NCBI GenBank assembly: GCA_001929475.1
Contig: LXFE01000126.1
Location: 1 to 64,000 of the forward strand
Length of the DNA stretch: 64,000 bases
Origin: Neolecta irregularis DAH-3
Lineage: Eukaryota
Reading direction: 5' to 3'
Each line of letters begins with the position of its first letter. The stretch's first letter is position 1. The notes under the pieces were generated by a model. The model worked only from the letters and a program-made list of their open reading frames with translations, searched no databases and was not told where the DNA came from. Positions 32,328 through 53,973 of this stretch are shown in pieces. Position numbers and translations under genes: made by a program.

Positions 32328-35300
32328 TCATTCTGAATTGTGCGATGGTTCAGCGAGTGGTGGATGTTCGTTTTCTTCAAGATATCCCAATGTAGCAAGA
32401 ACTTCTGTTTGTTTTTCGGCTTCAGCTTCCGCTTCAGCGCGATCCTGTTCAGTCATCAGATTTTCGTCAGGACTCTCAAAGGTATCAGTAGTAATGATTC
32501 CTCGAACATGATCAGAGATTCTAGAAATATCATTGAGTTGATGCAAAAAGGGAACGAACTCGGACAAGGCTTCGATAAGAACTGTATCTCTATGTGCTTC
32601 CGGCGGTAAATCAAATTGAACCGCCGGTGATTCCTCGGGCGGGGCACGGAAGCAATCACGTAATGTTTCGCGATCGACATTTCTTTTTGGATTCTTCTTG
32701 TCAACGACACGACTAGATAAACCGAGTTTGTGAATATTTTTGCCAAAGAGACGCTCCTCAAATGTACCAATTGTATGTAGCCGATACACGCAGACGGGTT
32801 TCATTTGTCCCAGGCGGTAAGCACGGCCAACAGCTTGTTCGTCGAATTGCGGGTTGAATGTGAGATCAAAGAGGACAACCCGAGCCGCTCCTTGTATATT
32901 AAGACCAGCGGATCCTGCCTTGGCAGAGATGAGATAAGCAGTGGTATCATCAGAATTGAAATGACGAGTCTGCTGTTGTCGCAGTGTCATTCGCGTTTTC
33001 CCATCCAGTCGAACAGATGTGATTCCCTCTACTCTGAGAGCATTTTGGATGTAATCTACAGAATGTGTGCATTAATGACAGCAGTACAAGAAGCATACCG
33101 ATAGTCTCTAAGCTATGCGAAAATACCAGTGCTTTCTCCTTCACTTTTTGGCAGGCTTTGAGTATGGAGACAAGCGCTATGCATTTAACTCCATGTTCCC
33201 GAGCCGTGATATCTAAGATTAGATTTCATACATAACGAGTACATGCCAGATACATGATCCTGAAGTGCGCGGGCCCATTCATAGTCTGAAGACGGTGGAG
33301 CGCTCACAATGCCCAAATCTCGTAATTTTTCTCCAAGATCCTCAAATTCGCCAGGCTCGGTACAATGAGGACTCTCTGTCACTGGTCCACATCCACCATC
33401 TTGGTTATTCTGAAGTTGCTCTCGATCCCTTTGATGTTTTTCCAATGCTCGGCTATCTCTCCGATTGAGGGCTTGCTACCCATTACTGCTATCGGAACAT
33501 GAATCATACCATGAAACATACTGGATGGCTGCAAATCAACTGCAAATCATTCATACGAGCCAAGAGACCCAATGAGGAACCTTTTGTGTGTACGTCGATA
33601 TATTCCGAATAAGCCTTGATGTTTAGCAAGAACGAATAGAATCATTAGAACCAAAAGATAGTCGTACTGAACAGGTCTCAGAGCAAGTTTAATAATAAAC
33701 TCGTATTTTGATGGCATATCATAACTGATGGCCTTGATATCCCGCCTAATAAGTTAAAAGTATTCAGTGAGCTAACGTGAAATATTCGTACCTATGCACT
33801 TTGCTTTCGATAATCTTTCCTAGTTGGTGCAAACGCTTTTGACTCAACTGAATTAGTAAATTACCATTTGGCCAAAGTCCAACTCACCAAAATCTCTGCG
33901 GGAGTGCTGTCAGTGAACAGACCCTCAACAACTGGAATGATTGTGTTTGCATTGAATTCTTTGTAATTTCCAAGGAAATTCTTGTCTATCCAGTCTATCA
34001 TATAGTAGTATTCTTTCTGAAGATTAAATAATGAATATGACATGCTTGAGAGTACCAGGCTGTTTGATAGAGGAGATCCAGTTAAGGCAATCCTACGACG
34101 AGTATCAAACATGTCAGCAAAACCACGCAATTTAGTCTCATCAATGAATCATTTGCACCAATATGAAACATACCTTTTCGTTCTTCAAAACATGAGCTTC
34201 ATCAGCAACAACGAGGGAAGGACCGGGGTTGATTAGTGTTCTGTGTATCTCAGCATATTGCTCTTCGCTGTACGGTGCTGCTCTTCCATTAGACCCCTTA
34301 TTGATCATAAGATTGCGAAAGGCTTGATAGCCCATGAGTAGAACGCCACCATTGGTATCCCATTCAGTGAGCATTTGCACTGGTACATGTTGTGAATCTA
34401 GAGTTAGTGCATATAATATACGTCACTTGCTGAATATATTTACGGGGCCCAAAACCTCGTCTCTGAGATGCTCAGGCGTCCACTGGTAGAATTCTTCTAG
34501 CCAATTCTGGCAAAGTGCTGGTGGACACAGAATAAGAAATTTTCGACGCAGCTTTGTTGGGAGAGCCCGATTTGAGACATAAATCGCCTCTGCAAGGGTG
34601 TAGAGAAATGCGATAACCTGCAATGTTTTACCTGAAATCAATGCTTGATCACCGAGTAGCGCCTTACCGAGACCCATTGTATGAGCTAAGAGACATCCAC
34701 GTTGCCGTTTGGAGAGAAAAACCTGTTTCCAGATGAATTGGATACCTTGGACCTGTAGGATATGTCAACCTTGCCTGTGTGCTTTGAAGGAGCGAAGCGA
34801 ACCTGGTGCTCTTTTAAATTCCGGGAGATGTATGGATTAACTTCGATATTGCCCTCACCTTCCTTATGACCAAGCTATCACTTAATATGGAGCTTGTTTG
34901 TAGACCAAACGTTGATAATACAAGAACCACCGTTTGCTTTGCCAAGTTGAGCCTTCTCCCGGGCATTCATGACTTCAAGCTCTCTTTGAAGTTCTGTCCT
35001 GGCACTCTGGCCAGCCTGATCAATGGCGACTTTTCGATGTTTTTTCCTGCGTGGTCTATCGTTCTTAGATATATCCATTTGACGGGCTGAGCATTCTGCC
35101 GAAGATGCCTCTCGTAAATATTTGTTGCTACTACCAATCAGCTGCCACACCGAGTAATAGCAATACATTTTATCGTTCCTTTTCCTCTTACATTTCTTCT
35201 GACTGAGGTGTTCCATTAAACCCAGGTCAGTTGCAGCTTTCGGAATAGTTTCGTAAAGTAATTGAAACTTTAAAAGATCCTGAATCAGTGCGATGTCGTT

Positions 35301-38126
35301 GGCAGAGAAAGCTTCCTTGTTCGTACACCGTGGGGGAAGGACAAAAGTAGTATGCAAACTGAGGAGAAAATTGTAATTCTTTCGTGTTTCACTGAAATGG
35401 TTAGAGATCCTACAGGAGATTGACGCACTCGTCTAAATCTACCAAAGGTGCTTTGCCACCACGAGGACGTTTCTCCATCCTGGATCGCGCGATATTGACA
35501 AGAACACTGAAAGCATCTGTATGCCGAATTAAATGAATGTGACATAGTGTAGTCTTACATACTTTGAACACCTGTTTGTTTCAACAATCCCAGGAGACCT
35601 TGGACCCGCTTAGGGTGTGTTGACAAGAAGGTGTCTTTGCATATTCCGCACAAACGATCCTCCGCTGATGAAGTCTGATTGTCCTGATCTTCGTCTGAAT
35701 CCAAGATCACGATGACTTCCTTATCCAGAGGAGATCTCGGCAAGTATTGTATGGGTAGTTCTACTACATCATCATCATCATCTGAAATGCTGATGACTCC
35801 ACTGGAAGCTTGACGTGTCTCAGTTTGCCTATCATTCTTCACTTCTTTGAGCACCCTTCTTGTTGTTCGAATTTTCGGCGAGTGGTGAATAGATCCGATA
35901 GATCTTTTAACGTCTCCTTCTGGAGTCTTCGTGGACCGGGTTGATTTAACGTCGTTGTCATTTGAAAAATCTGATTCCTGAACTGGAATGGAATTCGGCT
36001 CCCCATGGATTATATCTTCCTCTGTTTTGTGAATGTCTTTTGAGCCAGAAACCACTTTACCATCTTGTTTACCAAGAAGGTACGTGTTCTGTACAGAATG
36101 AACAGCAACATTCTTCGCCATCACTGTAGGAGGGGATTGTACTTCCAGAGAGTCATCAGTAGTTTCAGACTCTGTGCTCCGCATATGGGTAATATGCTCC
36201 ACTGATACAATGTCTTGAATTTGCTCCTCATCAGCTACTAGAGGAAGCTGGTAATCTTCAATAAGATCGTTATCAGAATCTTCCTCATCTTCGATAATAA
36301 AACCTTCCAAATCGAAGTCGTCGCTATCCTCGTCTTCATCTCTATCATCGAGATTATTTTCATCGCCTTCTTCAGTTGAAGTGGTTTTGTTATTTGCTTT
36401 CAGTTTCGATTTAACCCTGGCTGGCTCTCCGTTATGAATTACTTCAAGGGCCCATTTGGCAAATAAAATCTGGTCGACTAAAGTGTGAAAGGAAGAGCAT
36501 ATCCTTTTAACTTCGAAGGATGTGGACCATTCCTGACTCAAAATTTCTTCGACTACCCGAACAAACGATTTCTGTAGTTTAACGAGCTCAACTTCCCGAG
36601 CATTTTGATAAAACAGACGGATATTCTTTGAGCGAGTTTTCATCCAGAGACTATGCGCTTTACACAAGAACTTCGGCAACTGCTTTTCCTTCCATTTCTC
36701 TTCATATGACGAGCGCTCTAGGGTTATGATTTCGTCGACTTGTTCTTCGGAAAGCTTTTTCACTGATCTTGAAATTCCTGACTTTTTTTCATTCTCTGCT
36801 GCTTCTATTTTCATTTCTCGTTCAGTAATTGAATCCACTGCACTGTCGAGAGCATCAAAATCAACTTCAGTATCATCGTCCATATCTTCCCACTTGAGCA
36901 AGTCGTCATACTCCATTTGTTTGTTTATAATAAGCGGCAAGGCATCGGGAACACGTATTCTCGAGCCGATCAACTGTAGAGAAGTTAATTGTTCTGGAGG
37001 AATATTAAGCCGATCAATGCTGGTTTGAAACACTAATATTATTAGACACTCTGGAACGACATTGAATATTGTACCATTGACTTGATCTTCCACCTGATCA
37101 AAGACTTTAACAAACATAGGCGCAGGTGGTTTCACGTACCTACGGCTATACGGTGATATAACCACTCGACGATTACCTCGACAAGTATATTCTATTCTCG
37201 TGCCAAGTGGACTTTGAAGAAAGCTTTTCATGAATTTCTGTACACCCAGCTTGCAGCCGAGATTTGTTGGAAGACCTCGAATCATGTCATTATGCGTAAG
37301 AGCTTGATCATCCGTTTTGAGGTCCTGGAAGAAGACCTGATCGAGTGGAAACGCCCGAGATTCATAGAAAAAGTTGGGCTTTGGTTTGGAGATATGCCGT
37401 TTATTATTTTTATCATGGATCTGTGAAGAAGTCATGAAATTTGTGCTCAAAGACATACTCAGATGTTTATCATTGACATTATCGAAACTGACCGGTTGAT
37501 GATGGACAACTGGGCGCAATAATCCATCATTGTCCAATTCCTGAAAATGACCTGCAAGTCTGTCTGTTGGGATTGGAGAGCAATTTCCTTCGACGCGATC
37601 AGTTCCATCCTGATTTATCGAAGCAGGCGATAGATATCCGCCAGTCCAAATCTTTAAAGAAGGTTGGTTATTATCGTCTTGAAGAGCCTCGCCGCTTGTG
37701 TCATACAATGTTACCAGAGAAATTTCAGGAATTGTCAAATGTCTGGTGGGATATGTCTTGACATTGAATTGCTCAACAGAAGGAAGCGGCGAACATGAAA
37801 AGACCGCATGTTCAAGGTACTGCGCTGGTTAAATTAGTCTTGAAAAACAATTCTTTCGTTGTGTACTGCTCTTGGAACGCAATTGAGAAATTTCATTCTC
37901 CAATTTTACTCTTTCGCCGAATTTCAAAATGTTTTCACAGAGGGTAGAAAAATCGCCAATCAGCAGGACCTGTCCGTCGATATACTCATCTGTATTTTCA
38001 GTATATCGATATAAGGTAACTATACGAACCGATAAATATTTTTGCTCTCTTCTGACCCCAAGGAAATGTAATCTGCAGCCATTTCGCAACGATTTCGCAG
38101 TTCCAGTTCCAGGGATCATCGTCCAT
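32328..38126 (-). CDS. Large SNF2-family ATPase (ATRX/ARIP4-like) with N-terminal SAM-like segment
   Basis: N-terminus MDDDPWNWNCEIVAKWL. Helicase motifs GCLLAHTMGLGKTLQVI, VVADEAH, LTGSPLSN, KALVFSHS and AGSAGLNIQGAARVVLFD..FNPQFDEQAVGRAYRLGQ. Confidence 0.88.
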
Positions 38127-43181: not shown

Positions 43182-44114
43182 TCATTTGTACCGCCCGGTC
43201 AATCCGCTCCAGTACTCATGTCCAGCCATCAACCAGGATAGAGAGTCGACATATTTTCTTCCTTGTTCCGTACTTCGACCGCTGTCAATATACTGTTGCT
43301 TCAAACCCAAGTATCGCTCAAAATAGGTCGGAGCAATTTGCGCGAGCTTAATCCATGCTTCATGTCTGCTTAATCCTTCAATTCGGTGCAGGAATTCCAC
43401 AGAATTGGCGGACGCATAACCCTCGCGAAATTCTTTGCGATAACTGAAAATGTCATTGATCAAAATACACTCCGTTCCGACTGTGCTATCGATCTCTCGA
43501 ATATCATCATATTCGGCATCCTCGAGTTTGATATCCATGCCCATTCGAAGAATGGTCATGCTCCAATAATACCCACCATTCAATTGACGGTATTGTAAAT
43601 ACTTTTGAAATGATTCGACGTTGCCGGGGTTAGAACGAGTATTCTTGTACATGCCGATGAGATTGCGTTGCATAACTTCTACATGGTCTGGAGCAATAGT
43701 TTCGACTTTGCACCATATTTGTGCGCATTTTCGTTCAATGTCATTGATGGGTTCATGCTTTCTAAGAAATATGCCGAGAAATCGTGCCGCAATTTGAGAA
43801 CCGAGCTCGTCGTTTCCGCATTCATCAATATAGTCGTCAAGAAGGAAGAACAACGTGATCATGTCAGCTACAAGGCGAATGCGTTCGGAAAGAATATCTG
43901 GAAATGAACAGACAGTGCAATAACCGTATTTACTGTCGATAAATTTCTGCCGAGACTCTTTTGAAGGCCATGGCCATTCGTCGAGAAAGGCTTGGTCACT
44001 TTCCTCTTCAATTTCTTGACTTCTTTGATGAAAACGAACTTGATGACCGAAAATATTGACTTTAGGGAGATATCTGCTGGCACCTTGATCACCCATGGCG
44101 CAAACGGCTGACAT
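43182..44114 (-). CDS. Class I terpene synthase (aristolochene-synthase-like, probably a sesquiterpene cyclase), intronless
   Basis: DDxxD motif (LLDDYIDE), pyrophosphate-sensor region (YLQYRQLNGG), NSE motif (NDIFSYRKE) and C-terminal WxxxxxRY (WSGLTGRY). 310 aa in one ORF. Confidence 0.92.
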   Translation of the reverse strand: MSAVCAMGDQGASRYLPKVNIFGHQVRFHQRSQEIEEESDQAFLDEWPWPSKESRQKFIDSKYGYCTVCSFPDILSERIRLVADMITLFFLLDDYIDECGNDELGSQIAARFLGIFLRKHEPINDIERKCAQIWCKVETIAPDHVEVMQRNLIGMYKNTRSNPGNVESFQKYLQYRQLNGGYYWSMTILRMGMDIKLEDAEYDDIREIDSTVGTECILINDIFSYRKEFREGYASANSVEFLHRIEGLSRHEAWIKLAQIAPTYFERYLGLKQQYIDSGRSTEQGRKYVDSLSWLMAGHEYWSGLTGRYK

Positions 44115-44632
44115 GCGAAACTGCTTAGGAAAGATTCAACCAAGGGAAATTGTCTCCTTATGTTTACTTCTTATAGCATTCGCTTCTTCAAGTCCACAGC
44201 ATCTTACTGCAGCAAAAACTCATTTGTTTCCATCTATCGACCCCTAGAGGCACCGATATCACATTCCCTGATGTATCTCCTTGATCCAAGTCAGGTCTAG
44301 AACCCTGAGCCGCTAAACATGTGATAACCTTGGTTATATACGTCATTGAGTTTCGCAATGCAGTTCGGCGAACTTGCGTAGAGTTGAAAGCACATAGGCC
44401 GTAGTAAAGAACCTCTTGGAAGTTTGTGCCGGTATCCTTGGGATATCTTTCTCTGGCTATGTCTAGTGGGAATGCAAGACCGGCTTTGGGTGAAAGGGAA
44501 AACAACGGACATGAAATATCTTCAAGGCAATTCCAGTCCTATAATTATAGATTATGAGAGGGAAACACTGATTATAACGAGTTGAAAAAATGACCGTACC
44601 GCGGATACAAAACAGGAATGTGAGCAAAAGCA

Positions 44633-45353: not shown

Positions 45354-46483
45354 TGTCTGGTGGTCGAGTCCGGCTCGAAGGTGAGTCGGAAGGTGGAGAA
45401 GGATGCGTGTTGCTATTCCGAGTGTGCATTGCATTCATGACCAGGCCATCACCACCACTCTCACTCACCTCTATTCTGCTTCACCTTCCGTCCTTGTGAT
45501 GTGCCCCGATCTAACGCGGATCCAAATGATACGAGCAACATTTTTTGAAAGGGGTTTTCTTGTTTTACTTTCCGTGTCTAGACGATACTAGCGGGGTGGC
45601 TTCTTCTGTTTCTTACACTAGTCCTATAGCCACCTGCAGGACTGGTGGATATCTATCCAATCATTCCCCGTTTATTGAAAACTCGACAACTGCAGCCTGT
45701 GTACGACACACGATGTGAACAGTGGCTAGCAGGAAACCCGCTCTTATACAACAGGCCCATGCGGGACTTTTCCCACTGAACTAACCTCGAAACTGCTAGA
45801 ACACGAAAACGTAATGTCTCGACTTTGATGCAGGGGATCTTTATAGTTTGCAAAGAGATGAACATTTGTCGTACACAGGGTACTCCGCTGCCAAACAGTG
45901 CTACGCTCGAATATTCGTAATCATAATAAAGGACGGATGAGAAAGCTACCGAAAGTATCAGAGATACATCCTCTACAGTGACAGGTATAAAGAAATCGCT
46001 ATTCATGTAGTCCATTTAGTGATTCAGTGCTCGGAATGCGAAAGAGACGGCCATTGACCGAGGTGCAGATTACTCTGAGATAGAATATAAAGGGAATGAG
46101 GCAATAAATAGATAGCTATCGGAGATGTAATATTTGATGTTTTGAGTGGGTATGAGTGACCTTGTTGGAAGGTAATATGACATAGTTGCATCATTGCTCC
46201 TTTCACATCTGTTTTCAAATATAATCTCCAACTAGAGCAATGTATGTGTGGAATAAAAAGGAAATTAGGATACAAGTGAGAATGACCAATACTATACTAA
46301 ATTACGAGCGCAACAAAGCAAGGTAGTTCGCATTTACGGTAATTAGTTATAAATCCGCTGTAATTGACGAACCACCTGGGAAAAACTAGAGCACCACCAA
46401 CCCCGCTCAGATCACCTCGACCATCACCTCAGATTCTCTCCACACCTCAAACCGCCCGCCTTCAAATTCTGTGTAGTTTCAGT

Positions 46484-48444
46484 ATGGAAGCACTCGTAGC
46501 TCAAGGCGCCAACGTCTGTCCGTTTCTCAGGAACGCGACTCCTACGACTCTCCGAATCCTAGCTTCTCGTCCATCGGGAGTTCGAGGGTTCTCTGTTTTA
46601 CAACGCGAGGGATTACGATGTCCGGTTCTCGGCCGATCGATTAAATTGCAAATGATTCATCGCGGATATATTGCGCCGTGTATGACTGTCAAGATGAGAT
46701 CATCACCGCAATTCAACGCTGCGATGATCCAACGAGGATATGTCGCGCCGTGTATGAATGCCAAGATGAGATATTCACCACATATCAATGCCGCTGCTAC
46801 GAGTCTTGAAAGTGTTCATTTGAAGGCTAAAATCGATTCTTCTAGAGGAGGGGTATGTCCTCATATGGTTGCTGTGCAAAATGCGGGAAGGGCAGCTAGA
46901 CGTGGATCCCCGACTTTGTTTCCTGGTAGTATTTCTTGTCCGATCAATCAATCGGCGCAGTGTCCGGTCAATCGCTTGACGCCCATTAATCACTCGACGC
47001 AGTCGTCTCCATTTGATTATGATGGATTCTATCAATCTGAGCTGGATAAAAAACATCTAGATAAAAGCTACCGGTATTTCAACAACATCAACCGGGTACG
47101 TATTTCAAGTAGTCTTGTTAATTCTAGCTCGCCAAAGAATTTCCGAGGGCTCATACTAGAGATCCTTTGGAGCGGGTGGATGTATGGTCTGCCAATGACT
47201 ACCTCGGCATGTCTCGGCACCCCAAAGTCATTGAGGCGATTCACGCGACTGTGGATAAATACGGGGCGGGATCCGGGGGCACACGGAACATTTCTGGGAA
47301 TTTCCAGCTGGTGGAGCTTCTTGAGGCGTCTATTGCCCGCCTGCATCAGAAAGAAGCTGCGCTTGTGTTCTCGTCCTGTTATGTTGCGAACGACGCGACG
47401 CTCTCGACCCTTGGGGCCAAGATGCCTGGATGTGTGATCCTCAGCGACCAGCTGAACCACGCATCGATGATCCAGGGCATCCGGCACTCTGGGGCTGTGA
47501 AGATGGTGTTTCGCCACAACGATCTCTGCGACCTTGAGGCGAAGCTGCAGACTATTCCCGCGGGGACGCCCAAGATCATTGCGTTTGAGAGCGTGTACAG
47601 CATGTGCGGGAGTGTTTCAGACATCAACGCGGTGTGCGATCTTGCGGAAAAGTACGGGGCGCTCACGTTTCTGGACGAAGTGCACAGCGTTGGGCTGTAC
47701 AACTACGACGGCGCTGGAGTCGCCGCGCACCTGGACACGCTGAGCAAGCACAGCCGCCGCCGCCTGGAGGCGCCGCGCGGGTCTGCCGCTGCCCGGATCG
47801 ACATCGTCTCGGGCACGCTGGGCAAGGCGTATGGCAACGTGGGCGGCTATATCTGCGGCAGCGCGCGCCTCGTGGACTGCGTGCGGTCGCTGGCGCCTGG
47901 GTTCATCTTCACGACGTCGCTGCCGCCGCATGTGATGGCCGGAGCCCGCGCGGCGATCGAGCACCAGCGCACCACCGCGCACGACCGCATCCGCCAGCAG
48001 CTGAATGTCCGCCGCCTCAAGTCGCAGCTCGCGCGCCTCGATATCCCCGTCGTGCCAAACCCCAGCCACATTTTGCCGCTGCTGGTCGGCGACGCTGCTA
48101 CCGCAAAGGCCGCAAGCGACGACCTTTTGCACAGTCACGCCATATACGTCCAGGGCATCAACTACCCCACAGTCCCCGTCGGCCACGAGCGGCTGCGCAT
48201 CACACCCTCCCCGCATCACACTCCCGAAATCACAGACAAACTCGTCCATGCGCTGGATCTCGTCTGGAAAAAGTTCAACATCAGGCGATCCGCAGACTGG
48301 GCGGCAATCGGTGGTCGTGCAGGCGTCGGCCACGGCAGCAAGGAAATCGTCCCTCTCTGGACGGATGACATGTTGGGGATTAAAACTTGCAAGAGCGACA
48401 TCATTGACACACAGTTGCCCCTACACAGTTGGGTTAGTCTCTAG
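46484..48444 (+). CDS. HEM1: 5-aminolevulinate synthase, mitochondrial
   Basis: Motifs SYRYFNNINRLA (32-nt intron 47096-47127), NDYLGM, GAGSGGTRNISG, SSCYVAND, SDQLNHASMIQGI, DEVH, GTLGKAYG, PGFIFTTSLPP and INYPTVP..ERLRITP. Confidence 0.97.
46652..46795 (+). repeat. In-frame tandem duplication, 2 x 72 nt, in the HEM1 N-terminal extension
   Basis: MIHRGYIAPCMTVKMRSSPQFNAA / MIQRGYVAPCMNAKMRYSPHINAA; the nucleotide similarity is visible directly. Confidence 0.9.
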
Positions 48445-48635: not shown

Positions 48636-49010
48636 ATTGAAGCTGCTATCGCCTGCAATCAGTAGTGTAAAAAGCATTACGCATGTTTCTCAGTTATCTT
48701 ATACAATGTCTGCGGTCAAGAATCATGTTTTTTCCAGACCAGAGATTTTGGAGGGGATTTTCCGTCCCGAAGGGATATCTTAATGTACTCGACCAGAAAC
48801 ATTCAAGAAGCAGATTTTGCTATTCCGGAATTCAAAAGGTTTATGGGCCGGGCTAAGCCCCCGGCTCATCCACAACACTGCTTACACTTTTACCATTGTG
48901 CACTCTGGTGCCATGGTATAATCTTGCAGACCGACCAGTGCAACCACAAATCAGAAGCGTATATATTTGATAACATATGATAGGTTAGTACTTAATTTCA
49001 ATCATCAGAC
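48636..49010 (+). pseudogene. Decayed paralog of the secreted-protein gene at 50118-51440
   Basis: Colinear blocks GAAGCTGCTATC, CAAGAATCAT...GACCAGAGATTTT, AAGGGATATCT..TAATGTACTC.ACCAGA.ACATT..GAAGCAGAT.TTGCTATTCC and TAATTTCAA.TCAT. Translates MYSTRNIQEADFAIPEFKRF versus MYSTRDIYEADLAIPEFRRF. Large deletions between blocks. Confidence 0.85.
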
Positions 49011-49539
49011 GTCAGATTAGTCAAACGAAATTTCCAAGGGGATCATACCTAGCTTTAGTAACGAGAGCTTAGCTAGGTATGGCCTGCAGTAACCTTTATT
49101 TACAGAAATGTTTTGAGACCCATCTGAGATAAAACACGCCACTGTTCCATGCCTCCAGTCACATTTGTAAGGACGTCTGGTTAATGTGTTAGGGTTAAGG
49201 GTCTAACCCTCAGTGAATTATGAACGCCTATACAAACTTTTTATTGCCCGCCTCCTCCAGCCCCTCCGCCATTTCATCTCCTCCAGCAGCTATCTATACC
49301 ATCCGCCAACCCACCCGGGACACCTGCGCCGGCATGATCCTCCTCTCAAAAGAGGCATTCCTTTCCTCAACCCCCGCCCATCTACCTACATCGCATTCCG
49401 TGCCCTCTCGATCCAAACTATGTTATGTCAAGTCGACAAACTCTACAGCCACAGTCTGCGTATTACACATACCTAAGAGCTGTTTCAGAGTGCGAAATCT
49501 AATAAAGCAGTAGACAAAGTAAGAGAAAAGGGAAAAGTG

Positions 49540-49779
49540 TGTAAACCATACGCCTAGAAGTACGATAAGACCAAGTGTTATAACTAGCCTAAGTATTCAT
49601 ACTTCCTACAAAGGGACATACCTAGCCTAAGTATTCATACTTCCTACAAAGGGATACACCTAGCCTAACGTCTTACAAAGGGACACACAGTAGGCTAGGA
49701 TTATCTAATCTGCCTTTATATACTTCCCGTCAAGTCACCTTGCCGTATTGGTAGGATACCCTTTGGGTATATCCTTACA
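49540..49779. mobile_element. Solo LTR, family A, with internal 38-bp tandem repeat
   Basis: TGTAA...CTTACA ends. Unit CTAGCCTAAGTATTCATACTTCCTACAAAGGGACATAC at 49584-49621 and 49622-49659 plus a partial third copy. Homologous to 154-370 and 25485-25606. TSD not intact. Confidence 0.8.
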
Positions 49780-50117
49780 GAATGTCGCGGCACATGTTAC
49801 AAATTATTTCTTCTTATGGTAAGCTGGCAGCCTTCAGTGTGACGTTTAACCTGATATATGTTCCATTCATTTCCACTGATATCCATTGTTTTCCCTGCCT
49901 CTTACAACCCTTATAAGAAGGACCGTGTTTTTTTCTATGTAGGCCAACTGTATAACGAATTTTCCTTTTGCCAGCTTCGACGTCTTCACCCCTGAAAGAT
50001 CATAGGAGCTCATGCCTCACCAATCGAAAATATTTTAAACCAAAATACGTAAATAAAATCCCTGCTGCAATCACTTTCAAGTAACTGCCCTTTGTTCTTC
50101 TGACTTTTGACCAAAAG

Positions 50118-51440
50118 ATGTTTACAAATCTATACATCGTTTTCTCATTCATGCTTACAGTCGTCGGAGCTTTGCATGAATGGTCCCAAATCGGAATAAA
50201 ACAAAATTACTACCAGTCGCCAGACTCGCGCGATGGACATAACGGACGTCTTTTCAATATAGCAACTGATACCCTTGAAGAAGCTGCTATCATCTGCCTG
50301 CACTTGTGCCAAAAGTATGGCTTCTTCGCAGTTGTCATAATTGGTATCGGCGACCAAGAATCATCATGCTTTTTCCCGGACCAGAGATTTTTGGGGTTTG
50401 AACAAGACGACTCCACCTTGGTCCCATTAGATATTCCACAGCGAGAACTACCGCAAGTATCAAGAATATCATTAGTCATTGGTGACTCAATTGCTTTATT
50501 CCCTCGTTGGAAGTCTACCATAACTAGATGCATCCAACGTAAAAATTACTACGCTTTCAAGTATATATCGCTATCTCTTAATATCGCTAACTGTTAAAGT
50601 AGGGTCATTCCTTCCTTCCCTACAAAGCACAACTTGCAAAACTTATCAAGTGTTCCATCGTCTGGCCTCAACTTTATTCGTGATATCGATAGTTTTCAAT
50701 CGCTAAACCAATGGAGGATCCAGTTTGATAGCTTGGCTGGCCTGGGACCAACAAATGTACAGAATGAGATAGTGTTGCGATGGCGAAGAGGAATAGAAAT
50801 GTCGATTTTTACTCCACCAACTCAAATATCATCTCATTGGGTTGGAAATGACGAATGGAAGAAACCTCAAATTATCAATATGATTAGTCACATACTCGAT
50901 AAGACACCGCTCGACGCCTCTATGGTTTACGCATATGCGAGCACCATGTTTAGGGATCTATACAGAGAGGTGGAAACACCGGAAGACACTTTCCTTCCTA
51001 TTGCTACTCGGCGCATTCAAAATGAAGGGTTCCAAGTGGTTCAGCTATCAGGCAACCATTGGCTCACTGTGAAGTGGATTAGCCATCCCCAAGGGATATC
51101 TACGTTAATGTACTCAACCAGAGACATTTATGAAGCAGATCTTGCTATTCCTGAGTTCAGACGGTTTATAAACCGAATTGAAAATGACTTGCAACCAAGA
51201 CAGCCTGTTGTGGTGTATCGTAACTGTCCCGAGAATGACGAGGCTTTTTGTGCGATATTTCTTACTGTCATTACGGCGCTTTCAATTCCACCTCTGGGAG
51301 TTTTCTATGAAGGTATTCCAGATGATTTTCGACTTTACATGGCATACAATTTGATGCAACAATTTGGATTCACTGGAGAGGAGGTTGATCAAAGGCACCA
51401 AGGAGAGTTTCGTTTGACTAATCTAATTTCAAATCATTGA
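50118..51440 (+). CDS. Predicted secreted protein (about 426 aa) with a C-terminal Ulp1/C48 (CE clan) protease-like domain
   Basis: Signal-peptide-like start MFTNLYIVFSFMLTVVGA. One intron 50561-50602 (GT...GCTAAC...AG) joins the two ORFs in frame. C-terminal FQVVQLSGNHWLTV...CPENDEAFCAIF...FRLYM. The gene is well supported; the domain call is inference. Confidence 0.75.
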
Positions 51441-51893
51441 AAGTAACAGTTGGAAAGTTAAGGCAGATAAAACTCGTGATTTTACAGGCGGGTCGATTTT
51501 ACGGGTGGGTCAGAACACAGGAGACTGAGGATGATTTAGGGGCACTCAACAACGCAGATGCCCAGTATATTGAAGTTGCTTGTTCTCTTATCTGAAGCAA
51601 AGTATCACCTGAGTCATTGTATACCACAGGAAACATTCCATATTCTTACCTTGCTCAAATGTCAGTTTGGTTCATTTCTTTTCTAGACATTCATATAGCA
51701 GATACTCCTGTGAGAAGTAATGCCAACAGGTTGAGATAAGTGTCCCTACCGTCTGAGTACGGTCTTCTATAATAGAAAGTACCCCTCTCAGGTATACCCA
51801 CTGACTAGGTTGGACAACTATTTGTTTCGCCCTGAAATTCTGAATCTGACCATACTTCTTTCATTGGAATCTGTACAATGGCGTTTTTCTAAA

Positions 51894-53973
51894 TTATTCG
51901 ACTTCATTATTCATCGCCTCTCTAAATACCTGCTTACACTCAATTCTGGCCCTTAATTTTGCGCACAACAGAAATGCCCCGCTTAGTTTTCTATGTAGTG
52001 AATATGTCTCTTCAGGAGGAGGCATAAGCCTTTCTTTGATCATCACCGGAATATAGCCCTTTATTCGATCTGTTATAGTTTGATTCGCAAAGTCATAAAC
52101 GTCGGGTGCAGATGAGCTATACGGTTCCCCAAGCGTTATTATAGAGTCGATATGCGAATTCAACATCGCCTTGGGCGTCAATCTCTACTTTTACCAAAAA
52201 CTTACCTCGGACTCGAAACCAGTTAAATATCCCAACTTTATTGAAAGATCTCTGCAACTCTCTCGATCGCCTTTTGCCGCAGCTTTCAAAATTTCGATAT
52301 AATTTGTGATAAAATCTTCGGGAAAAGACCTGCATGCCCCAAAATCTAGCAGTTCAATCTGATTCTCATTAACAGTTTACCAGATGATCATACTTGATGC
52401 GTGCTCGGGTTATAAAGAAAGTTCGTCCAATTAGGATCAGTTTGCATATATCTGAACTGAGCAATCTCTCTGAAACACAATGTAAGAATCTGCTTGCCAA
52501 TCTGATTGTTAGCCTTGGATAAACTCAGGGTAAACCCAATCTCTTGTTTCTTGACAATGATCCAATGTATATTTCAACCCTTGTCCGTACATTCGTTCCA
52601 TAGTAAGAACCTGTGGACCGCACCCCTCATCAATTATCTTCGGCACTCCAAATGTAGAATCGTGTTCAAAGAATTTGGCATATTTCTTTGCACAGTCCGC
52701 TTCTCTTAAATAATCGCATTCCCAACTTAGTTCCTTCCTCGCTGTTTCAATGGACCGATCGAGATACAGTCCCGGAGGCAATAATCGAGAAACACTCAAC
52801 AACAACGATAAATTATTCAAATCTGAATCAATGGATGATGATACACCAGGATACTGAATCTTTACAGCAACTGGCATTTTGTTTGACGCGAGTACGCCAA
52901 AGTGGACTTGACCTATCGATGCAGCTGCTACGGGAACTTCGTTGAATTCGGAATATATTGATCGCCAATTTGACCCAAGGTTTTGCGTCATCACAGACTC
53001 CATTTGATATTGTGGCATGTAATCTGCACTATCCTGAACACGAAGCAAAACTTCCTGAAGAGCAGCAGGAATAATCTTTGAATCTAACATTAAAATAACT
53101 CTTTTGGTCTAACGGAATACCTTGAAAACTAATCATTTGGCCCAATTTCAAAGCTGCTCCACGCATTTTTGAAAGCTTTTTCACAAGTCGATTCATATTT
53201 GTCGAGGAAAGTATTAACGAACCTGCTGAATCTGTGGAACCAGTTACTCTACGTAGACTTTCGTTGATTGCCCCGAATCCGATTCCGGCGGCTAGACTTC
53301 CGTAGTGAAGAAGGCGAGTTATTCGTGATGACGGGACTCGAGATGATGACATTTGAAAAGAATTCTGTATATTAACTTGAACCTAGTGATTTCTTACGTC
53401 GTCTAGACTTTGATCACTCTGATCGGGTTGAAAAACTTTGGAATCAGATTCTAAAGAGTATCCATCTGCCGTATAATACAGCCCAGAATCAATGTTGTCG
53501 GTCAAGGATGATTTATCAGTGGTAGGTGTAGCACCGTTGATTTTTATTGCTGCCGGATCCGTTTCGATAATGGATGCGTTACGGGTATTATGAAATACGG
53601 TATCGATATCTGGTCCTTGCTTGCTAGGTGCATCGGCGATATACTGTTGAATTACATTCACAGCTTGATCTTTTCGTAAATCATTATCGATCTCGTTTTT
53701 CCTCGGTCGAGAATTGTGCGCGGCATCGAAATTCCGAGTCGAGAGCAATGGCTCTCGAGATAACGATACTTGCCCCGAAACCCCAGGCTCTGTTTTCAAG
53801 CTTGTTTCTTGGTTAGGTTCCATATATTGCGGAGACTGCCATAATTTGATGATGCTAGAGGTCTTCGCCAATTTTTGGAGATGATGTATTTGAAAATGGA
53901 TACTAGTCCTACTGACTAGGCAAATTGCTCTTGATAGTACATATAAATCATGCAGTCCTCGACGTGAGACCAT
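51894..53973 (-). CDS. COQ8: Atypical kinase Coq8/Abc1 (ubiquinone biosynthesis)
   Basis: Motifs [48 protein letters not shown] and [15 protein letters not shown]. Confidence 0.95.

Follow-up and report, generated by a model that had tools for sequence, protein, structure and literature searches.

A Neolecta irregularis protein with a putative signal peptide, a PAN/apple-like module and a predicted, divergent CE-clan (Ulp1-like) fold

The subject of this work is NEOLI_000019, a two-exon gene of Neolecta irregularis DAH-3 on contig LXFE01000126.1. It lies in a window of 64 kb, meaning the whole stretch of DNA that was analysed, which covers positions 1 to 64,000 of the contig. The best-supported description of its product is an exported or luminal protein in which a PAN module is combined with a divergent domain of the CE fold, and which belongs to a lineage-restricted family. 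A more specific reading, that this gene, one of six Neolecta paralogues, encodes an exported, PAN-targeted Cys-His peptidase or isopeptidase, has in our estimate about an even chance of being correct. Eukaryotic clan CE proteases are known as intracellular enzymes that process SUMO, NEDD8 and ubiquitin-like proteins, and the exported CE proteases known to us are bacterial or viral. A literature survey that covered largely the openings of abstracts, together with the Ulp1 parts of PMC8146201 and PMC11110190, turned up no account of a secreted C48/CE protein from a fungus that has a PAN domain.

The gene is organised as follows.
50118–51440, + strand: two-exon gene NEOLI_000019 of Neolecta irregularis, product 426 amino acids (aa)
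50118–50560, + strand: exon 1, 147 codons plus 2 nt, ending in phase 2; it encodes the signal-peptide-like start, the PAN/apple-like module and a linker
50561–50602, + strand: GT..AG intron of 42 nt, with GT at 50561, a CTAAC branch at 50587–50591 and AG at 50601–50602
50603–51440, + strand: exon 2, including the stop codon 51438–51440

A preliminary description of the locus, made from the DNA letters alone, proposed that two open reading frames (ORFs) join here in frame into one protein of about 426 aa, and this is borne out. The stop-to-stop open frames are 50085–50597 and 50598–51440, and a scripted splice that joins 50560 to 50603 restores the frame and gives 426 aa with zero internal stops. 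The exon-2 product matches NEOLI_000019 as deposited, a 418-aa hypothetical protein of strain DAH-3, at 100% identity over 97% of its own length. In addition, a metagenome homologue consists of a single uninterrupted 467-aa ORF (L001 647–2050) that spans both halves. Because this ORF is intron-free and covers both halves, it shows, independently of splice prediction, that both exons encode one protein. On this evidence NEOLI_000019 is, as far as sequence can tell, a real and intact gene and more than a product of chance.

An exhaustive phmmer search of 1.84 billion representatives returned 7 proteins at E ≤ 0.001, namely NEOLI_000019, five Neolecta paralogues and one metagenome protein. The paralogues, a count of which had been proposed as a check in the preliminary description, are NEOLI_001969, 003549, 003712, 004313 and 004062 (E 2.7e-41 to 9.6e-8). 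They are 31–41% identical to NEOLI_000019 over the matched stretches, and 24–37% in the alignment. Two of the five look broken or partial: P0007 is degenerate, with the His region (see below) missing and Ala in the Cys column, and P0008 is a piece of only 123 aa. The sole homologue outside Neolecta, P0009, is an unnamed 467-aa protein from a Joint Genome Institute (JGI) metagenome. It is intron-free on a 2-kb contig, and it has kept the Cys, with Gln in place of His and a 19-residue insert after the Cys helix. A word-indexed search with the exon-2 query (P0002) found only the protein itself; with the family profile as query, P0009 was the one addition. A scan of metagenome DNA with a 5-row alignment gave 1 locus from 55 candidate stretches, the contig of P0010, which is a near-identical cluster mate of P0009. 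Since the phmmer, word-indexed and metagenome searches gave nothing further, the family appears to be almost confined to Neolecta.

The identity of the C-terminal domain comes from structure prediction. The AlphaFold2 model of the full-length protein, from 7 sequences, is poor, with a predicted local distance difference test score (pLDDT) of 55. The model of the exon-2 domain is usable, with a pLDDT of 68.4 and a predicted template modelling score (pTM) of 0.74. Structures were compared using VIA-align against 48,161 representative PDB chains, with no Foldseek prefilter. The chains at ranks 1–31 are all CE-type, with Z from 9.7 to 4.3 and 140–181 residues aligned (Z 9.7–6.2 for the first 28); the first plainly unrelated chain has Z 4.2 and 74 residues aligned. 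The top rows are OtDUB (Z 9.7, 160 residues aligned), RickCE (9.1) and the Ulp1 chain 1euv_A (9.0, 170 aligned), the last matching residues 24–255 of the model to 405–621 of 1euv_A. Ranks 1–31 also hold SENP5, SENP3, SnCE1, SENP1, NEDP1, CidB, pS273R of African swine fever virus (ASFV), a Chaetomium Ulp1-like protease, HopZ1a, poxvirus I7L, SENP7, adenain, XopD, SseL, RavZ, ChlaDUB, NopD, AvrA, PopP2, the deubiquitinase (DUB) domain of SdeA and a few Legionella proteins. We take the Legionella entries RavZ, Lpg1148, Lem17, AnkD and AnkH to be CE-like.

50823–51374, + strand: core of the CE-clan fold, residues 74–257 of the exon-2 product, spanned by at least a fifth of the VIA rows listed

The N-terminal helices of the domain extend this core back to about 50673. 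When the full-length model was re-ranked, all 50 of the 50 entries listed were CE-type. The best rows from Foldseek are also CE-clan proteases, with E 0.042–0.065 against the PDB and 0.057 against the viral library. Peptidase_C48 clusters account for 22 of 30 ESM-Atlas feature hits for the domain, the best at 0.92. The sole sequence-level pointer to C48 is the UniRef name of the paralogue P0005, 'Ubiquitin-like protease family profile domain-containing', which is PROSITE-based. The CE-clan (Ulp1-like) fold suggested in the preliminary description is thus well supported, as a predicted fold, by the rankings of both models.

The N-terminal half has two recognisable segments.
50118–50171, + strand: signal-peptide-like segment, residues 1–18; apolar run LYIVFSFMLTVVGAL at residues 5–19, with V-G-A at −3 to −1
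50250–50417, + strand: PAN/apple-like Cys module, approximately residues 45–100, with Cys60, Cys64 and Cys84; placed by alignment, bounds approximate

By direct reading, the N-terminus has an apolar run of 15 residues with small residues at −3 and −1, and its maximum 12-residue Kyte-Doolittle mean is 2.45. The n-region contains neither Lys nor Arg. Apolar runs of 12–15 residues before a small-x-small motif are present in 5 of 5 full-length Neolecta members, so the signal-peptide-like start noted earlier is conserved in the family. We infer that this is a putative cleavable signal peptide, by which the protein would enter the secretory pathway and be exported. The Cys module has the pattern C-x3-C followed by a later Cys, and NEOLI_000019 holds three of the four Cys of the family. 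The loose likeness to PAN/apple domains that had been proposed for it is supported in the relatives: of 30 Atlas hits for the N-terminus of P0005, 19 are PAN_1 clusters, UniRef calls P0007 'Apple domain-containing', and P0009 has a PAN_2 match at E 4.8e-4 and 20.6 bits, below the cut-off of 21.1. In NEOLI_000019 itself the likeness is not recovered by Pfam. The region between the two domains is of low confidence in the full-length model.

The candidate catalytic centre consists of the following residues, numbered in the exon-2 product.
51057–51059, + strand: His152, in the HW motif, candidate general base; immediately precedes strand 153–161 in the model
51114–51116, + strand: Ser171, at the end of strand 164–171, at the usual Asp/Glu site; its equivalence to the Asp is judged from topology and spacing
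51225–51227, + strand: Cys208, a second invariant Cys, 8 residues from Cys216
51249–51251, + strand: Cys216, the candidate nucleophile; placed by the model in the first turn of helix 213–225

The motifs listed in the preliminary description (PLDASMVYAY, FQVVQLSGNHWLTV, MYST, CPENDEAFCAIF and FRLYM) are all present, and it located the codons for His (51057) and Cys (51249) correctly. In the model, the His stands before a core strand and the Cys at the N-terminus of a helix, which is the arrangement of clan CE, where the Cys follows 60–70 residues after the His. The spacing from His to Cys is 64, as against 66 in Ulp1, in keeping with the range over which the model aligns to 1euv_A. The catalytic residues of Ulp1 are given as His514 and Cys580 in PMC2172760. 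In an hhalign comparison of the family with ElaD of E. coli K-12, the only match was 10 columns around the HW motif, at a probability of 0.8%; the matches listed in the ElaD search (120 of 2,393) were all near-identical E. coli copies, and no diverse C48 profile came from them. The blocks that hold His152, Ser171 and Cys216 have pLDDT 75–88. His occupies its column in 5 of the 6 members that cover it with the motif intact, the other being P0009 with Gln. At the position of Cys216, all 5 of the 5 intact members have Cys, whereas the degenerate P0007 has Ala. Strand 164–171 ends in an invariant Ser followed by Thr or Ala, and acidic residues occur 2–5 positions further on, in no fixed column. 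Judging from the alignment, the centre amounts at most to a Cys-His pair assisted by a Ser, and an oxyanion Gln is not conserved.

On the basis of these observations, we favour the following working model. From the N-terminus, a cleavable signal peptide would be followed by a binding module of the PAN/apple type, then by a linker with little order, and lastly by the CE-fold domain, which is very divergent. The protein would enter the secretory pathway and be exported. The PAN module would then hold it on a protein or glycan ligand, and the CE domain would cut a peptide or isopeptide bond by means of its Cys-His centre, with the invariant Ser replacing the usual Asp.

A number of results weigh against this model. 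Peptidase_C48 (PF02902) gives no match at E ≤ 10 for NEOLI_000019, P0004–P0007 or P0009, and none at E ≤ 1 for the 7-member family alignment. Searches of PDB sequences with the family members gave no match, and an NCBIfam search gave nothing relevant. Foldseek found no match at E ≤ 0.001, the best values being 0.042 (PDB) and 0.057 (viral library). The model was built on 7 sequences, and according to the tool's own note a Z of 8–10 is barely above what unmatched models reach. The PAN module of NEOLI_000019 has no Pfam PAN hit and lacks one family Cys. As regards the centre, the Ser171 column is Ser in 6 of 6 covering members, and the oxyanion Gln is not conserved at the position six before Cys216, which holds E (in NEOLI_000019), E, Q, K and G in the five covering members. 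That the canonical Asp and oxyanion Gln are not evident had been remarked on, correctly, in the preliminary description. Lastly, P0009, the sole homologue outside Neolecta, is without the His base, so that catalysis may not be the conserved property.

The features of the centre also bear on the main rival explanation, in which the protein is a pseudoenzyme, a secreted PAN protein that cleaves nothing and has kept the CE fold for non-catalytic binding of a partner such as a ubiquitin-like or another small domain. We consider this possible, though less probable than the peptidase. It would fit the Ser for Asp, the variable position before the Cys and the Gln of P0009, where the remaining motif is kept. 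The strongest conservation in the family is also in helices away from the centre (PLDxSMVYAYA and IPDDxRLWxAYDLMQRFGL), and if the protein is exported, the invariant Cys208 and Cys216 could be joined by a disulfide. Against it, 5 of 6 members retain the His and 5 of 5 intact ones the Cys, His152 and Cys216 both fall within the best-modelled blocks, and in some cysteine proteases a hydroxyl can serve as the third residue of the triad. A quite different possibility is that the protein is not exported at all, its apolar segment being a membrane anchor or unused, and that it acts inside the fungal cell or in the endoplasmic reticulum (ER) or Golgi. This would agree with the database model, which starts at the second ATG (50151) without most of the apolar run, and with the n-region devoid of Lys and Arg. 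We regard it as unlikely: P0004–P0007 align from residue 1 at 50118, the apolar run, at 15 residues, would make a short membrane helix and has V-G-A at its end, and PAN/apple modules are typical of extracellular proteins.

The preliminary description went further and offered the protein as a candidate deSUMOylase or deubiquitinase effector, a label that for NEOLI_000019 is pure inference. Such an effector would enter host or partner cells and remove SUMO, ubiquitin or NEDD8, in the manner of XopD, SseL and ChlaDUB. The best fold matches do include bacterial CE effectors as well as Ulp/SENP, the start resembles a signal peptide, and the family is lineage-restricted with signs of gene birth and death. 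However, the host, the uptake and the binding of ubiquitin-like proteins are all suppositions, the PAN module and the conserved Cys point to an extracellular life, and the catalytic centre is non-canonical. On the lifestyle of Neolecta, the accessible text of the genome paper (PMC5309816) says only that it is uncultured. We give this explanation, a special case of the working model, little credence. The least probable reading by far, which we would accept only with great surprise, is that the gene plays no part in the cell and is either an Ulp1-like domain carried by a transposon or a pseudogene decaying in a repeat island. Relic fragments do lie 1.1–1.5 kb upstream (see below), and Ulp1-type domains are described as common on fungal accessory DNA in the Ulp1 part of PMC8146201. 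Yet the frame is intact, and the paralogues are only 31–41% identical, which suggests old copies that have been kept open. Transposase and reverse transcriptase were not found in 82 of the window's 85 ORFs of at least 110 aa, nor were repeats of 80 nt or more in its 64 kb, and the genes on either side, for an aminotransferase and an ABC1 kinase, have housekeeping functions.

This protein can be compared with three known systems. The first is the Ulp1/SENP/NEDP1 group (C48, PF02902), which it resembles in the model fold (Ulp1 Z 9.0; SENP1, 3, 5, 7 and NEDP1 Z 7.7–8.9), in the order of His then Cys and their near-equal spacing, in the HW motif, and in having the Cys at the start of a helix. It differs in lacking a Pfam match, in the Ser for Asp and the missing conserved oxyanion Gln, and in having a putative signal peptide and a PAN-like module, whereas Ulp/SENP enzymes are nuclear or cytosolic. 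The second comprises the bacterial CE effectors (OtDUB, RickCE, SnCE1, XopD, SseL, ChlaDUB, CidB) and the YopJ-type acetyltransferases, which are top or near-top fold matches (OtDUB Z 9.7, RickCE 9.1, SnCE1 8.7, HopZ1a 8.1). The effectors leave the cell that produces them, as is predicted for NEOLI_000019. However, they use injection systems and act in the host cytosol, whereas NEOLI_000019 has a eukaryotic signal-peptide-like start and a module of extracellular type, and sequence identity in the fold alignments is only 4–13%. The third consists of the animal apple/PAN proteases (plasma prekallikrein, factor XI, plasminogen, HGF), which share the order of signal peptide, PAN/apple module(s) and protease domain; the N-terminus of P0005 has an Atlas hit named 'coagulation factor XI-like' at 0.89. 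There the protease is a trypsin-type serine protease, and here it is a CE-clan cysteine-protease fold. The likeness to the blood-clotting apple-domain proteases is one of analogy, not of descent.

It is worth adding that the gene model suggested here differs slightly from the database annotation at the start, at the intron and at the C-terminus. The database model begins at 50151, the second ATG, and so lacks most of the apolar segment. Four paralogues (P0004–P0007) align from their own residue 1 at 50118, with the common start M-F/L-x-x-L-Y-L-V/I-x-S, and for this reason the alignment favours 50118 as the start. The intron begins GTATAT and has the acceptor string AAAG/TAG, and in its 42-nt form it contains an in-frame stop. 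This form gives YYAFKVIPSFP, one residue fewer than the paralogues have, and is the one used by the database protein. An alternative acceptor AG at 50598–50599 would give a 39-nt intron and the junction YYAFNRVIPSFP. In the family alignment this junction lines up gap-free with YYAYNxxLPSFP of the paralogues and recovers the Asn that they share, and because of this the acceptor 3 nt upstream appears preferable to the 42-nt form. A regular-expression count of intron-like GT..CTAAC..AG patterns showed no enrichment over shuffles and is therefore uninformative on the typical intron size. At the 3' end, the unspliced C-terminus ...LISNH is positionally like the paralogue ends ...FSND and ...FRHD. 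The annotated second intron (approximately 51412–51702) is about 290 nt long and has a weak donor. The tail that it produces bears no relation to the paralogues, and the comparison favours the plain stop at 51438–51440. A downstream in-frame FYRRVDF resembles a paralogue tail and was judged to be due to chance. The available text of PMC5309816 gives 5,546 genes in 14.5 Mb for N. irregularis, with 99.4% of models supported by RNA-seq, a general figure that is not specific to NEOLI_000019. Three supplementary files of that paper contain no mention of NEOLI_000019, Ulp1, C48 or apple.

Around the gene, the following features were identified.
47128–48441: class I/II aminotransferase, from a Pfam scan
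48639–48844, + strand: relic of a paralogous copy, matching the gene at 50280–50396 joined to 51070–51169, with stops and an internal deletion of about 675 bp
48992–49030, − strand: inverted copy of gene positions 51408–51446, 39 nt at 82%, consisting of the last 31 coding bases, the stop and 6 bases beyond
52512–53108, − strand: ABC1 kinase, from a Pfam scan

The neighbours also include an ARMT1-like phosphatase and, upstream, Erf4, a terpene synthase and Mid1. The relic at 48639–48844 has an identity of 81–90% at the DNA level (two blastn pieces), 70–86% in the repeat-finder pieces and 45–55% by tblastn. These scrambled relics, 1.1–1.5 kb upstream of the gene, point to local gene birth and death. 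The preliminary description had placed the gene in an island containing long terminal repeats (LTRs), which the analysis did not support. There are no direct or inverted repeats of at least 80 nt in the 64 kb, and the 40–60 kb region has only one 71-nt tandem pair. Of the 85 ORFs of at least 110 aa, 82 were compared with Pfam, and none matched a reverse transcriptase, integrase or transposase; the three omitted are the frames of NEOLI_000019 itself.

Some other features of the window may be mentioned. In the intergenic region about 450 bp upstream of the start codon, a 38-nt unit (ACCTAGCCTAAGTATTCATACTTCCTACAAAGGGA...) occurs twice within 49570–49690, and a third, incomplete copy of its 21-nt core comes after these. 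A 71-nt tandem duplication, 80% identical with a spacing of 72 nt, lies at 46652–46794 within a 357-aa frame (46364–47434). This frame has no Pfam match, is located just upstream of the aminotransferase frame and overlaps it, and lies in the most GC-rich region of the window (0.52). At 43185–44135 on the − strand there is a match to Terpene_syn_C_2 (E 2.1e-22), which indicates a terpene synthase gene in a very small fungal gene set. A 757-aa frame with DUF7607 (E 1.1e-21) occupies 35558–37828 on the − strand. Directly downstream of it, also on the − strand, are frames with SNF2 and Helicase_C (32331–34764), and because they adjoin it, they possibly form one large multi-exon remodeller gene together.

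If the working model is correct, a eukaryotic signal peptide and an apple module joined to the CE fold would widen the range of places and targets on which this fold acts. The family would also offer a natural setting in which to test whether a CE scaffold can support an active Cys-His-Ser centre. More speculatively, and as a suggestion that we hold only tentatively and think improbable, these could be the first known eukaryotic CE-clan peptidases to work outside the cell that produces them, either as apple-targeted Cys-His-Ser enzymes used on the proteins of another organism (a plant partner, prey or a competitor) or as effectors that cleave ubiquitin-like proteins. Of the 5,546 genes predicted in this uncultured fungus with a small genome (PMC5309816), 6 belong to the family. 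As it is almost absent elsewhere, it may provide a handle on the ecology of Neolecta.

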